From a virus (Duplodnaviria > Heunggongvirae > Uroviricota > Caudoviricetes), in IMG/VR virus record IMGVR_UViG_2548876943_000010, positions 1 to 9,467 of that record: a DNA stretch of 9,467 bases, one strand, 5' to 3'. The position numbers were made by a program. Shown here one piece after another: positions 1-6,000 of the stretch. Within the stretch, counting starts at the first letter, position 1, and each line of letters begins with the position of its first letter.

Positions 1-3000
1 CGTCCGGTGATGCTCTTCTCTGTTTTGTAAAAAGAGCGGTACCAGCCGGAAGCAAGTGTACAAACTGGTACTGCCAAAGCAGTGGCTGTTGTGGTGACCG
101 GTGCTGATCTCCGGCTTGCGGTTATTTCAGACTCTCACGGGCGTTTGATTGCCCCGCCGAACAGCTCTTTTCCGCAATAGCTGCAATGTCTTTCGCGCAT
201 CAGCCTGCGCATTCACCACAACGCTGATAGCATTGCCGGTGTCCGAATCGAACGGACCTTTTCCCTGCCCAACCCTCCCATCTGAATGGGACTGTCTGGA
301 ATTGAACCAGCACTTATGCCTTGCTCGTCAATGCTCTCATCGTTGCGTCCTGGTCTCTTCCCAGGCGTCAAACCGAATCGCCACGCTGGTTAGGCGTCTT
401 ATCAGCATCCTCATTGACTTGCACATTCCGGCTACCTGGTTTGTTTGCCCGAGCAAGGAGTGGATTGTCCCCTTTAACGTCCCCAGACCGCTAACGACGC
501 ATGTGCCATACGCCGTGTTACAACCAAATTTTGTTAGGACCTTGTTTGTTGGTCTGGAAAGAAAGATAAAATGAAATTGCGCATTATGCAAGTGTTTTGT
601 TGCGAGATGCGCAATATGATGGGTGATGAAAAGCCACCTTCTGGTGGCTAATTGATGAGGAGGTCGGGGTTAATTGTGTCGCTTAAGGGTTTGTGACTGA
701 CTGATTAAGACCTTCCCAAAGACCATAAACCGGTGTTCGTTTTCGCTGGTAATTCCCCATTCACGGTAAATCTGGTTATCAGAAATCACCAGTAGTTTGT
801 CAGGTATCATTTGCAGTCGTTTGACATAAATTTTATCATCAAAACCAAACACATAGATACCATCCCCATCAAACTGATTGATACTGATATCAACGAAGAT
901 GAGATCTCCTGGCTCAATGGTTGGACACATACTGTCCCCACGAACGTTGATAACTTTAATGTGATTGGCTGGTCGTCCTCCAAACATCGATACAGCATTA
1001 TCAGTTATGTATTCAATGGCATGAATCACATCAATGACATCACCGCCCTGGATAAGGCCATTTCCCGCACTGGCACTGACATCCAGCATTTCAATACGGA
1101 ATACATCCTTCACCTGCGCAACATCCTCACCAGTACTGTTTTTACATACAGTATTACTTTTGAAGTCTGAGGTAAAGAGATCTGCAATATCAACACCTAA
1201 GCTCCTGGCAATATTACTCAGGGCTTGTTCAGTGAATTGTTTCTGCTTACCTGTTTCCAGGCGTGAGATATTCGCCGCATCCACTCCTATTGCTTCAGCG
1301 AGATCGGCGATTTTCATGTTCTTCGCCTGGCGAAGTTGTCTGACTCGATTTCCTATGTTCATGCGTTTATTACATTTCTTTATTGCGCGTTAAGCAAATC
1401 AACTTGCGCAAAATATTTGCGTGAAATAATATGCTTATCACGCAATATGTGGAGGTTATATGCAATCACCATTACGAAATGTGCGTAAGGCGCACGGATT
1501 TACTTTGCAGCATGTTGCTGCGGGTGTTCAGGTTAATCCAGCGACGCTGAGTCGTATTGAGAGACTGGAACAAATTCCATCTATCGATCTGGCAGAGCGT
1601 CTGGCCAATTTTTTTAAGGGAGAAATCAGCGAAATGCAGATTCTCTATCCTGCTCGCTTTCAATCTAGTCAAAACCGGAATGAGTTAAAACCACAGGAAA
1701 AGGAGGTAAGCCGTGGGTAAGCATCACTGGAAAGTGGAAAAACAGCCTGAGTGGTACGTGAAAGCGGTCAGAAAAACTATCGCGGCGTTGCCGGGTGGTT
1801 ACGCTGAAGCAGCTGAGTGGCTGGATGTAACAGAGAACGCTTTATTCAATCGCCTTCGTGCCGATGGCGATCAGATTTTCCCGCTGGGATGGGCAATGAT
1901 TTTACAGCGCGCGGCTGGCACTCACTACATTGCGGATGCTGTCGCACAGTCTGCTGGTGGGGTGTTTGTATCGCTTCCTGACATTGAGGAAGTAGAGAAC
2001 GCCGATATAAACCAGCGCCTGCTGGAAGTCATCGAACAGATCGGGAGTTACTCAAAGCAGATTCGTTCGGCAATCGAAGATGGGGTAGTGGAGCCACACG
2101 AGCAGACAGCAATGAATGATGAGTTGTATCTGTCAATTTCGAAGCTCCAGGAGCATGCGGCACTGGTCTACAAAATTTTCTGCGCTCCAGAAAAGAGTGA
2201 CGCCCGCGAGTGTGCAGCTCCGGGCGTCGTGGCGTTTTGTGTCTGTGGAGAAACTAACGCATGAACAGTTTAACAACACACTACCGTCGCTCGCAACTGA
2301 TTGCGCTTCCTGTACCGGGTGGAAAAGCGAAGGTGGAGTATTGCTATGCAGTGAATGTACCAGGTGACAGGGAAATTGTAACCCACAGCTTTGCAGAGTG
2401 GGCTGTGGGTGATTTCAACCGGCAGAAGGAGACAGTCCTTTGCGACAAGTTAACCGCTGGTTCAAAGATCACTACGGAGTGCCCGTCAGAGTCATTCGTT
2501 GGGAGCCGGAAACACAACGGGTTATCTACCTCCGTGAAGGCTATGAACATGAATGCTTCAGTCCGCTCGAACAGTTTCGTCGTAAATTCAGGGAAATAGA
2601 GGTCGGTCATGAGCCTGTTAATGACATCCCAGCCCATTGTGATAAATCGTGATCTTGCATGCCGTATTGGTCTGAATGAGGCAATTGTGTTGCAGCAGCT
2701 TCATTACTGGCTGAATGAAACGAATTCAGGCACTGAGCATGGCGGAATTCGCTGGGTTTATAACACGACAGAACAGTGGCTGGAGCAGTTTCCGTTCTGG
2801 TCAGAGTCCACTCTGAAACGCACATTTGCAAGCCTGAAATCACTTGGGGTTTTGCGTCGCGAGCAACTCAATAAATCGAAGCGTGACATGACCAACTTCT
2901 ACACGATCAACTATGAAAGTGAGCTTTTAGAAGAGGTCAAAGTGAACGAATCCATCAGGTCAAAATGCACTTCTCCATCGGGTCAAAGTGACCTGATGGA

Positions 3001-6000
3001 TGGGCGCAAAATGACACGATCCATTGGTTCAAAACGACACGCTGTCATCGGGTCAAAATGGCCCAATGATCTTACAGAGAATACAACAGAGATTACTACA
3101 GAGAATAAAACCTCCGCTTCGCAACCGGATACGCAAACGGCTGAACAGGAGTTTTTAACTCGCCATCCTGATGCGGTTGTATTCAGCCCTAAAAAGCGCC
3201 AGTGGGGAACGCAGGATGATTTGACCTGTGCACAGTGGCTCTGGAAAAAAATCATCGCCCTGTACGAGCAGGCCGCCGAATGTGACGGCGAGGTGGTTCG
3301 TCCCAAAGAACCGAACTGGACAGCATGGGCAAACGAAATTCGCCTGATGTGTGTGCAGGATGGTCGTACTCACAAACAAATCTGCGAGATGTACAGCCGC
3401 GTCAGCCGCGATCCGTTCTGGTGCCGTAACGTGCTCAGCCCGTCGAAGTTGCGGGAAAAATGGGATGAGCTTTCCCTGCGCTTATCGCCGTCCGTCAGCA
3501 CGCACACAGAAAAACGTGAAGACCCGTACTTCAAAGCCAGTTACGACAACGTGGACTACAGCCAGATCCCGGCAGGATTCAGGGGGTGATCATGAGTCTT
3601 TTGAATGAAGTTCAGAAATTCATTGAAGCCCATCCGGGGTGTACTTCCGGAGACATTGCGGATGCTTTTGCAGGTTACTCACGGCAGCGCGTTCTGCAGT
3701 ATGCAAGCAAGTTACGTCAGAGTGGGCGTGTGGCTCACCGTTGTGAAGGAGATACACGCAGACATTTCCCGCGCCTGACTGAGAGAGCGAAGGAGCTGGA
3801 ACCACAACCAGTTCGTGAAACCAGACCTGTGCGCAATTTCTATGTCGGCACTAACGATCCCCGGGTAATTTTGTGCCTGACCCGCCAGGCTGAAGAACTG
3901 GAGTCCAGGGGCTTATACCGTCGTGCTGCAACCGTGTGGATGGCGGCATTCCGTGAAAGCCACTCCCAGTCAGAACGAAACAATTTTCTGGCGCGCCGTG
4001 AGCGGTGCTTACGGAAAAGCAGCAAGCGCGCTGTATCGGGTGATGAGTGGTATCTGTCAGGGAATTACGTGGGGGCTTAATGAGTAATAAATATTGCCAG
4101 GCGCTGGTGGAACTGCGGAACAAACCAGCCCATGAACTGAAGGAAGTGGGTGATCAGTGGCGCACGCCGGACAACATTTTCTGGGGAATTAACACCCTGT
4201 TTGGCCCGTTTGTTCTGGATCTGTTCACTGACGGTGATAACGCCAAATGTGCCGCGTATTACACGGCGGAAGACAACGCGCTGGCGCATGACTGGTCAGA
4301 ACGTCTTGCGGAGCTTAAAGGTGCTGCCTTTGGTAATCCCCCATACAGCCGCGCCAGTCAGCATGAGGGGCAATACATCACCGGCATGCGTTACATCATG
4401 AAACATGCCAGTGCCATGCGTGATAAGGGCGGGCGCTATGTTTTCCTGATCAAAGCTGCCACCAGCGAAGTGTGGTGGCCGGAAGATGCGGACCATATTG
4501 CTTTTATTCGCGGGCGTATTGGTTTTGAACTGCCAGCCTGGTTTATCCCGAAGGACGAGAAGCAGGTGCCGACAGGCGCTTTCTTCGCTGGTGCTATTGC
4601 TGTTTTCGACAAGACCTGGAAGGGACCGGCAATCAGCTACATCGGGCGCGATGAACTTGAGGCATGTGGTGAGGCCTTTCTGGCGCAGGTTCGCCAGCAG
4701 GCGGAAAAACTGGTCAGGGAGATGGCGGCATGACGACATTAACTCAATGCCAGCAGCAGGTGCTGGATATGCTGATTTCTTACCAGAAAGAACGTGGCTT
4801 CCCGCCAACCAATCAGGAGGTGGCAACCATGCTGGGATACCGTTCAGTGAATGCAGCGGTGGAGCATCTTCGCGCACTGGAGAAAAAAGGCTTCATCACG
4901 ATAAAGCGTGGCGTGGCCCGGGGGATAACGCTTCATACCGCGGTGAAGGACGACGACAGCGAGGCGGTCGGGATTATCCGCTCACTGCTTGCCGGTGAGG
5001 AAAACGCAAGGCTGCGTGCAACCCACTGGTTACATGAGAGGGGCCTGAAAGCATGAAGCTGATCCTGCCTTTTCCGCCCAGCGTGAACACGTACTGGCGA
5101 CACCCCAACAAAGGGGCGTTTGCAGGTAAGAGCCTGATAAGCGCGGCGGGGCGAAAATTCCAGAGCGCGGCGTGTGCAGCAATAGTTGAGCAGTTACGTC
5201 GTCTGCCAAAACCAACGTCGGCACCTGCTTCAGTGGAGATCGTGTTGTTTCCTCCGGATAACCGGATCCGCGATCTGGACAACTATAACAAGGCGCTGTT
5301 TGACGCCCTGACCCACGCGGGTGTGTGGGAGGACGACAGTCAGGTGAAAAGAATGCTGGTTGAGTGGGGACCGGTTATCCCGAAAGGGAAGGTCGAGATC
5401 ACTATCAGTAAGTATGAGAAACCGGCGGGTGCAGCCGCCTGATTAAGAGGAGAAACGAAGTATGAATAATCTGATGGTCATTGATGGTATTGAAGTTCGT
5501 CGTGATGCTTATGGTCGTTACAGCCTGAACGATCTTCACAGGGCTGCCGGTTCTCTGGATAAGCATAAGCCTGCATTCTGGCTCCGCAATGAGCAAACTG
5601 AACGTTTAATAAGCGAGTTGCAGATTTGCAACTCGGTCAATATAGAGCCAGTTAACGTTATTCGTGGCGGAAATAACCAGGGGACGTATGTCTGCAAAGA
5701 ACTGGTGTATGCCTATGCAATGTGGATAAGCCCGTCATTCCATCTTAAGGTGATCCGTACTTTCGACATGGTAACCAGCGCACCGGAAAAATTATCCGGA
5801 CAGGCTGCTGACAAGATGCAGGCTGGTGTGATTCTGCTGGACTTTATGCGTCGGGAGTTAAACCTGTCTAACTCATCTGTGCTTGGTGCCTGTCAGAAAC
5901 TCCAGGAGGCTGTTGGCTTACCGAATCTGGCACCGCGCTATGCCATTGATGCTCCTGCTGATGCACACGATGGCTCAAGTCGCCCGACACTGTCACTGAG

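Follow-up and report, generated by a model that had tools for sequence, protein, structure and literature searches.

An O-only replication module beside the PerC-family gene yfdN in the early operon of a lambdoid Escherichia coli prophage

The IMG/VR virus record IMGVR_UViG_2548876943_000010 (Caudoviricetes) carries, at positions 1 to 9,467, the immunity and early-right region of a lambdoid Escherichia coli prophage. Within this 9.5 kb stretch, referred to below as the window, we analyzed the replication module, in which the gene for an O-like initiator protein is directly followed by yfdN, a gene for a protein of the PerC family. The best explanation, to which we assign a probability of roughly 0.6, is that this is a one-gene ("O-only") lambdoid replication module with yfdN as an accessory gene, and that the initiator recruits the DnaB–DnaC complex of the host.

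The module is a member of an already published class and stands beside an already annotated gene. According to Zheng et al. 2025 (PMC12315714), 34 of 314 lambdoid phages, LLS included, encode just an O homologue, and their replication is "not yet understood". The window module satisfies this O-only definition, and mEp460_4F5, the closest complete phage (97% identity across window 2400-4300), is named in the same paper (PMC12315714). A preliminary description of the window had presumed that a lambdoid O-like initiator normally comes paired with a loader; the slot argument built on this is valid, as detailed below, but the premise that such initiators are always paired needs correcting because of these 34 phages. 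The means by which O-only lambdoid phages load their helicase is acknowledged to be an open question (PMC12315714). O-only modules are carried by the serotype-converting Shigella phages SfII, SfIV and SfV, by the cdt phage and by several Shiga toxin 2 (Stx2)-converting phages. In these phages, toxin output is expected to be influenced by the copy number reached once they are induced.

The initiator, its origin and the loader slot

The initiator matched phrog_391 ("replication initiation O-like") with an E-value of 1.2e-99, and the gene positions and O-like character given for 2609-4080 in the preliminary description were as described. The Pfam scan of the initiator matched no family, giving a sub-threshold Slx4 hit only, and did not find the Phage_rep_O N-terminal domain (PF04492); a PDB sequence search returned no relative. 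The N-terminal third is similar to phage proteins of the DnaD-like or "replication initiation" kind (PHROGs, tblastn). Initiator residues 147-290 pair with the C-terminal portion of 933W O (148 aligned residues, 33% identical, E 1e-25), and residues 169-290 share 37.7% identity with many lambda-type O genes (tblastn). From classical lambda genetics, the C-terminal part of lambda O is the portion that contacts P. The AlphaFold2 (AF2) model of the initiator, which is of low confidence (mean predicted local distance difference test, pLDDT, of 55), lays out helices and strands at residues 14-108, disorder at 109-174, a helical region at 179-292 and disorder at 294-315. The protein is described as an N-terminal winged-helix region, a disordered linker, a helical C-terminal domain homologous to lambda-type O and a conserved tail.

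An array of six iterons lies inside the initiator gene (Table 1), with starts at 2931, 2954, 2977, 3000, 3023 and 3047 and a spacing of 23-24 bp. The pattern search gave five matches against 0.9 expected, a number reached in 0 of 200 shuffles. The iterons are presumed from their sequence to be the binding sites of the origin, and the adjoining AT-rich tract is the presumed unwinding element. The iteron region encodes the disordered linker of the initiator, and the AT-rich tract encodes part of that linker; the ori that lies inside O of 933W is annotated with iterons and AT-rich tract arranged in this way. Because both elements lie in its own gene, the 326-aa protein is supported as a genuine initiator. 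It would bind the iterons and then open the AT-rich tract, and with its C-terminal domain and its ...IPxGFRG tail it would directly recruit DnaB–DnaC of the host, or DnaB.

This scheme can be set beside two known systems. With the O–P modules of lambda and 933W, the window shares an initiator gene containing its own iterons and AT-rich tract, a homologous C-terminal domain and the same pR operon position after cro and a cII-like gene. It differs in that the N-terminal domain of the initiator is not Phage_rep_O, the tail is ...IPAGFRG and not one of those found on P-paired initiators, and the P gene is absent, with yfdN coming next. Iteron plasmids likewise encode one iteron-binding initiator (pSC101 RepA, R6K pi, RK2 TrfA) and no helicase or loader of their own, and obtain host DnaB–DnaC through contact with that initiator; these initiators belong to other protein families, and DnaA boxes are usually needed as well.

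Phages of the window's kind encode no helicase or loader, in agreement with the absence of a recognizable loader in the preliminary description. In the Pfam profile scan, which took in the ten large open reading frames (ORFs) of the window, helicase, DnaC/IstB and lambda-P families were matched by none of the ten. No AAA+ ATPase domain (IstB_IS21/Bac_DnaA, Walker motifs) was detected in YfdN or the other window ORFs by Pfam or NCBIfam. The annotated complete SfII, cdtI and mEp460 genomes contain no helicase, loader or primase, and in an Stx2c phage that bears yfdN the upstream region holds no DnaB-type helicase. Papers on the Eru replication type mention neither PerC nor the mechanism of such a module.

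The expectation of a loader after the initiator comes from its homologs. A Rac-like prophage initiator of 321 aa, 70% identical over its full length, is directly followed by a 248-aa IstB_IS21/Bac_DnaA protein, a DnaC-like loader. The initiators of Trabulsiella and Rahnella (55-57% identical) are followed by a lambda-P-like protein with 37-38% identity to 933W P, and those of Erwinia, Serratia and Mixta, which share the C-terminal domain, by a protein likewise 37-38% identical to 933W P. In Citrobacter and Salmonella, where the initiator is 73% identical, the next gene encodes a divergent YfdN-like protein of 147 aa. Since homologous initiators are followed by DnaC-like AAA+ or lambda-P-like proteins, the reasoning from a loader slot is sound. 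The Rac type, with its YdaU-like initiator and YdaV-like DnaC/IstB AAA+ protein, also has the same ...IPxGFRG tail as the window; it carries its own DnaC-like loader and then DUF1627 and DUF977, whereas the window lacks all three and has yfdN instead. The window's initiator type is also present in SfII and SfIV.

Helicase loading could in principle bypass recruitment by the initiator, which would then only open or mark the origin, and proceed by host restart or recombination, through PriA/PriC–DnaT–DnaC at R-loops or D-loops or through RecBCD/Chi-stimulated recombination-dependent replication. RusA is encoded in the same operon, RecBCD enhances growth of the O-only phage LLS, and lambdoid phages without Rec are rich in Chi (PMC12315714). 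However, the authors of that study attribute the RecBCD effect to concatemer formation and packaging, not to initiation (PMC12315714). The RAST label of the initiator, "Primosomal protein I", would also fit this route, but a DnaT match is absent in both Pfam and NCBIfam, and the label is thus unbacked. The presence of an iteron origin, the conservation of the O-type C-terminal domain and the co-variation of the tail with the type of loader argue for protein–protein recruitment, and we regard loading by restart or recombination as improbable.

The initiator tail and its partner genes

The window initiator ends in ...IPAGFRG. A tail of the form ...D[YT]xxIPxGF[RK]G ends all initiators preceding YfdN, a DnaC-like loader, DUF977, DUF1627 or a methyltransferase, and ...IPxGF[RK]G is common to otherwise unrelated initiators of at least four architectures. 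These are a window-type N-terminus with an O-type C-domain; HTH_36 with an O-type C-domain; HTH_36/DnaD_N with another C-region (SfV, mEp460, cdtI); and Phg_2220_C types (F1055, Kp4866-6, LLS). The shared tail was seen at window 3512-3586 and at loci L003, L005, L007, L009, L010, L012, L016, L128, L129 and L132, and DNA homology with the mEp460, SfV, Stx2c and cdtI modules begins at about window 3514. Initiators paired with P end in HWNxxEAWxNTL or in the 933W type instead.

For comparison of tails and partner genes, initiators were clustered at 90% identity, and the resulting counts are phylogenetically non-independent. Among clusters with the GFRG tail, the next gene was YfdN-like in 11, a methyltransferase in 6, DnaC-like in 3, DUF977 in 1, DUF1627 in 1 and P-like in none. 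The six clusters with a P-like next gene had the HWNxxEAWxNTL tail (5) or the 933W type (1), and none had GFRG. The tail therefore co-varies with loader type and not with the body of the initiator. The simplest reading is that the GFRG tail may be a loader-specificity determinant addressing a DnaC-type loader or DnaB. Its occurrence both on initiators with a DnaC-like loader and on initiators without any points to host DnaC/DnaB as the partner, and a phage without a DnaC-like gene, its tail being read in this way, would use host DnaB–DnaC. A YfdN-specific docking site was considered for the tail and rejected, the tail being equally present on DnaC-paired and unpaired initiators. The correlation between tail and loader is a modest, testable addition to the known O-only class, and gives a concrete handle on helicase recruitment at the extreme C-terminus of the initiator.

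The O-only phage LLS resembles the window in having a single O-homologue gene with a GFRG tail and no helicase or loader, and in the methyltransferase, KilA/HNH and Q genes downstream. It differs in its HTH_36-like N-terminus and Phg_2220_C-like C-domain, assigned by likeness to L128 and F1055, where the Pfam matches were obtained, and in lacking the yfdN gene that the window has between initiator and methyltransferase.

YfdN: domains, distribution and possible roles

The yfdN ORF (3586-4080) encodes 164 aa from GTG 3586 or 162 aa from ATG 3592, within one residue of the 163 aa given in the preliminary description. The ATG is the likelier start because it has an AGGGGG Shine-Dalgarno sequence 5 nt upstream and lies 2 nt past the initiator TGA. 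Residues 100-153 (AEELESRGLYRRAATVW...RRERCLRK) match positions 5-58 of the 90-position Pfam PerC profile PF06069 at 38.9 bits (gathering cut-off 22.6, E 1.1e-9), and the match to the NCBIfam ANR profile NF033650 reaches 24.5 bits, below its cut-off of 32. Of the PerC/ANR-like motif noted earlier, the PerC part is thus well beyond chance, whereas the ANR part is sub-threshold by sequence, although the fold does match: in Foldseek searches of BFVD, the three-helix domain superposes on 60-aa phage "ANR family" proteins with a target-normalized template modelling (TM) score of 0.90-0.91 and a root-mean-square deviation of 0.5 Å. The AF2 model gives pLDDT values of 85-93 in both domains, the N-terminal one being a winged helix-turn-helix of three helices and two strands. 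Foldseek against the PDB returned for YfdN short local matches only, of about 54-60 residues, to IclR, BlaI and ArsR-type chains, and BFVD a MarR-type domain; matches of this length are consistent with the winged-helix domain. The three-helix domain also resembles MIT/TPR-like bundles in the PDB.

The last ten residues (WYLSGNYVG) hardly vary even where overall identity falls to 25%, though predicted to be disordered, and this conservation suggests that the peptide may be a short linear binding motif. The family is small, with 105 clusters among 1.84 billion representatives.

PerC and PchABC are small single-domain proteins of about 90-130 aa, and the pch group 1 genes measure 315 bp. Like the PerC/Pch and ANR/Aar proteins, YfdN has a C-terminal domain that passes the PerC threshold and superposes on phage ANR proteins; unlike them, it is a two-domain PerC variant of 162 aa, with an extra N-terminal winged helix, a linker and a conserved C-terminal peptide, and its gene lies in a phage early operon beside the initiator. 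A subfamily that combines a winged helix with PerC is thereby defined; it is restricted to the early operons of enterobacterial prophages, and its putative function would bear on regulatory cross-talk between prophage and host. In the literature, yfdN is named "the K12 unique PerC homologue" (PMC5931665); the sole use of the gene that we found is as a deleted background (MG1655 ΔyfdN) for Pch assays, and an effect on the enterocyte effacement locus (LEE) or H-NS is not reported.

yfdN is an optional cassette, translationally coupled in the pR operon. In phage cdtI, which is otherwise colinear with mEp460, an in-frame 396-bp deletion (window 3670-4064) removes residues 27-158 and leaves residues 1-26 plus YVG. 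A review lists cdtI as "induced from bacteria" (PMC8065619), and its inducibility is taken from that table and from the title of Asakura 2007. The identical deletion is found behind the window-type initiator in four IMG/VR contigs (L048, L049, L050 and L064; cdtI is L005). The deletion allele thus sits behind two different initiator types, and from its sequence looks like one allele spread by recombination. In Stx2a_WGPS2, yfdN is split by an insertion sequence (IS). The methyltransferase gene directly follows the initiator, without yfdN, in Klebsiella Kp4872-1 (same initiator C-domain, 49% identity), in L027 and L028, and in LLS, whose O-family protein ends in ...DTKIPEGFRG and which forms plaques on E. 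coli K-12. L046, L047 and L058 lack dam (window 4084-4729) and keep yfdN. Of 5426 complete E. coli genomes, 3596 match some part of window 2400-4300, for the most part its yfdN–dam end, and the exact combination of initiator, yfdN and dam occurs in 98 only.

We infer that YfdN is an accessory regulator and not a helicase loader. A hidden loader is disfavoured because YfdN has no likeness to P or DnaC in sequence, profile or fold, and because it is deleted or absent in related modules, among them those of phages that were recovered as particles (cdtI, LLS). The profile search identified PerC and gave no P or DnaC match, BLASTP against 933W P gave a best E-value of 0.21 over 8 residues, and hhalign a probability of 0.2%; as a P/DnaC analogue, YfdN was rejected after BLASTP, hhalign, Pfam, NCBIfam, a PDB sequence search and Foldseek against PDB and BFVD had returned nothing loader-like. 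The PerC-like neighbour is thereby removed as a tempting loader candidate. Of the two possibilities raised in the preliminary description, an unrecognized helicase-recruitment factor loses ground, and reliance on host DnaC with a regulator-like gene in the loader slot is the one that the evidence favours. The winged-helix domain of YfdN weakly matches the PHROGs of Ren and DUF977, small winged-helix proteins encoded after the loader in modules of the lambda and Rac types. With at best moderate confidence, YfdN would be a DNA-targeted regulator or anti-silencing accessory in the post-loader position, the loader position being empty.

What YfdN may do can be suggested, more tentatively, by analogy. 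Pch displaces H-NS at LEE1 and relieves silencing (PMC4764244), and Aar binds H-NS (PMC5570504); YfdN might similarly be a DNA-targeted regulator acting by protein–protein contact, most plausibly on H-NS-type silencing complexes. The regulation of host virulence loci ascribed earlier to prophage PerC proteins is true of PchABC and is not carried over to YfdN. Other leads were dropped. PADLOC gave only noise for YfdN as a defence protein; no link is claimed to PchD and PchE as YfdN-type proteins with phenotypes, pchE falling on SOS induction, unlike an early-operon gene; and a UTI89 filamentation-screen hit covering yfdN2 is not gene-specific.

Several observations weigh against an O-only module with an accessory yfdN. 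YfdN-like genes, down to 25% identity, always stand directly after a GFRG-tail initiator, across four architectures, and were never seen together with a P or DnaC-like gene; such adjacency is what one would expect if a replication factor filled the slot. The evidence that yfdN is dispensable is imperfect. LLS has as its host K-12, which carries its own yfdN in CPS-53 (PMC5931665), and because of this copy and of the common matches to the yfdN–dam end, YfdN could act in trans. The IMG/VR contigs and many of the prophages may be defective. The replication of O-only phages is itself the process described as not understood (PMC12315714). The proposed H-NS role is extrapolated from short PerC/ANR proteins that have no winged-helix domain, and the homology of the N-domain to Ren/DUF977 that bears on a post-loader position is weak (phrog_142, E 0.002-0.004; hhalign not significant).

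These points can be assembled into a quite unlikely explanation, in which YfdN is an unrecognized non-AAA+ helicase-recruitment or origin-activation cofactor, a P analogue bridging GFRG-tail initiators and host DnaB(–DnaC). It sits where a DnaC-like or P-like protein follows homologous initiators, its gene is translationally coupled to that of the initiator, and it adjoins a GFRG-tail initiator even at 25-32% identity, never accompanied by P or a DnaC-like protein. Its C-terminal domain resembles peptide-binding MIT/TPR-like three-helix modules, and it and the initiator both end in conserved, predicted-disordered peptides. On the other hand, YfdN is unlike P or DnaC, PerC/ANR relatives act on transcription and H-NS, and the GFRG tail is as conserved with a DnaC-like loader, or with no partner, as with YfdN, and so is not a docking site specific to it. 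Deletion, IS-disruption and absence variants, cdtI and LLS included, would require YfdN to be helpful rather than strictly essential, or to be supplied in trans by resident copies, which are common. A reading to which we give very little weight goes one step further and takes ...D[YT]xxIPxGFRG as a portable motif at which a DnaC-type loader or DnaB docks and which makes a phage loader optional, with YfdN as a new cofactor of the pathway: its PerC domain and C-terminal peptide would tune helicase recruitment or origin opening, and resident prophages would supply it in trans when the phage copy is missing.

Gene order leads to a further explanation, unlikely in our estimate, in which YfdN is a Ren/DUF977-type accessory in the post-loader slot, the loader slot being empty, and has a role unrelated to helicase loading or H-NS, possibly in superinfection exclusion or counter-exclusion, or in controlling the methyltransferase and nin-like genes next to it. 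The order is O–P–Ren in 933W and initiator–DnaC–DUF1627–DUF977 in Rac-like modules, and DUF977 directly follows the initiator in 29 loci. The N-domain of YfdN matches the same four PHROGs as Ren (142, 1687, 633 and 19053), but these matches are weak (E 0.002-0.04; phrog_142 at 0.0018-0.0039 and phrog_1687 at 4e-5), hhalign of the N-domain against single Ren and DUF977 sequences was not significant, and PADLOC has no match for YfdN. The methyltransferase gene directly follows yfdN in all contexts examined but two (L012 and L026, with one gene between), and the annotators of SfV placed the dam promoter signals inside orf40, the equivalent of yfdN; both speak for this explanation. The function of Ren is itself poorly defined, which weighs against this assignment.

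Operon layout and neighbouring features

The initiator and yfdN genes meet at TGAtcATG (3587-3594), and the yfdN stop overlaps the dam start at TAATG (4078-4082), dam being the next cassette of yfdN's operon. From the YmfL-like gene through rusA (about 1720-5200), the genes contain no plus-strand site that resembles a promoter or terminator. Because its gene junctions overlap or nearly touch and it has no such internal sites, the region reads as a single operon. The features are listed in Table 1.

Table 1 Positions of genes, protein domains and origin elements in the window
Feature	Position	Strand	Size or residues	Basis
cI-like S24 repressor	670-1362	minus		
cro	1460-1720	plus		
YmfL/CII-like gene	1713-2264	plus		
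DUF4222/YmfM-like gene	2261-2599	plus	112 aa	
O-like initiator gene	2609-3589	plus	326 aa	phrog_391
Six iterons, core ATYGGGTCAAARTG	2931-3069	plus		Repeat search, pattern search, sequence reading
AT-rich tract with three 12-bp repeats, TACAGAGAATAC-like	3070-3112	plus		Repeat search, sequence reading
Initiator tail coding region, KREDPYFKASYDNVDYSQIPAGFRG	3512-3586	plus		Protein alignment, tail-versus-partner table
yfdN	3592-4080	plus	162 aa	Pfam PerC; RefSeq "yfdN: PerC family transcriptional regulator"
YfdN winged helix-turn-helix (predicted)	3592-3765	plus	aa 1-58	AF2
YfdN disordered linker (predicted)		plus	aa 59-85	AF2
YfdN PerC/ANR three-helix domain	3859-4038	plus	aa 90-149	AF2, Pfam, BFVD
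YfdN conserved C-terminal peptide WYLSGNYVG, predicted disordered	4048-4077	plus		
N6-adenine DNA methyltransferase, phage Dam (PF05869)	4080-4733	plus		Pfam Dam E 1.1e-45; TIGR01712 255 bits
LexA DNA-binding-domain protein	4730-5056	plus	108 aa	PF01726 E 3e-19
RusA, then KilA-N protein, then DUF968/HNH protein	after the LexA-domain gene, before Q	plus		
Q antiterminator	7271-8023	plus		PF03589 E 1.5e-51

The DUF4222/"YmfM"-like gene directly upstream of the initiator is found in the same place in Citrobacter loci L012-L015, and small ORFs of similar size fill this position in Kp4872-1, Kp4866-6 and LLS. In e14, the ymfL/ymfM region has been reported as a filamentation (sfiC) region (PMC6206680). 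Downstream of dam, the LexA-domain protein lacks the S24 cleavage domain; expressed from the phage early operon, it could bind SOS boxes without being cleavable. Its conservation extends to SfV, mEp460 and Stx phages. In the Q protein, residues 148-193 score 30.8 bits with the DnaJ CXXCXGXG zinc-finger profile, below its cut-off of 32.7.

To the left of the repressor, window 1-600 is GC-rich (0.54) and has no convincing ORF, and copies of window 1-222, about 99% identical, lie in several IMG/VR contigs, at a varying distance from the immunity region. On the 3' side of Q, within 8303-9211, a low-GC (0.36) ORF of 141 aa carries a lipoprotein-like signal (LVGC). It is followed by a tRNA-like Rfam match at 8875-8934 (37 bits), where ARAGORN did not call a tRNA, and a strong match to the small RNA family STnc100 (138 bits) lies at 9021-9211.

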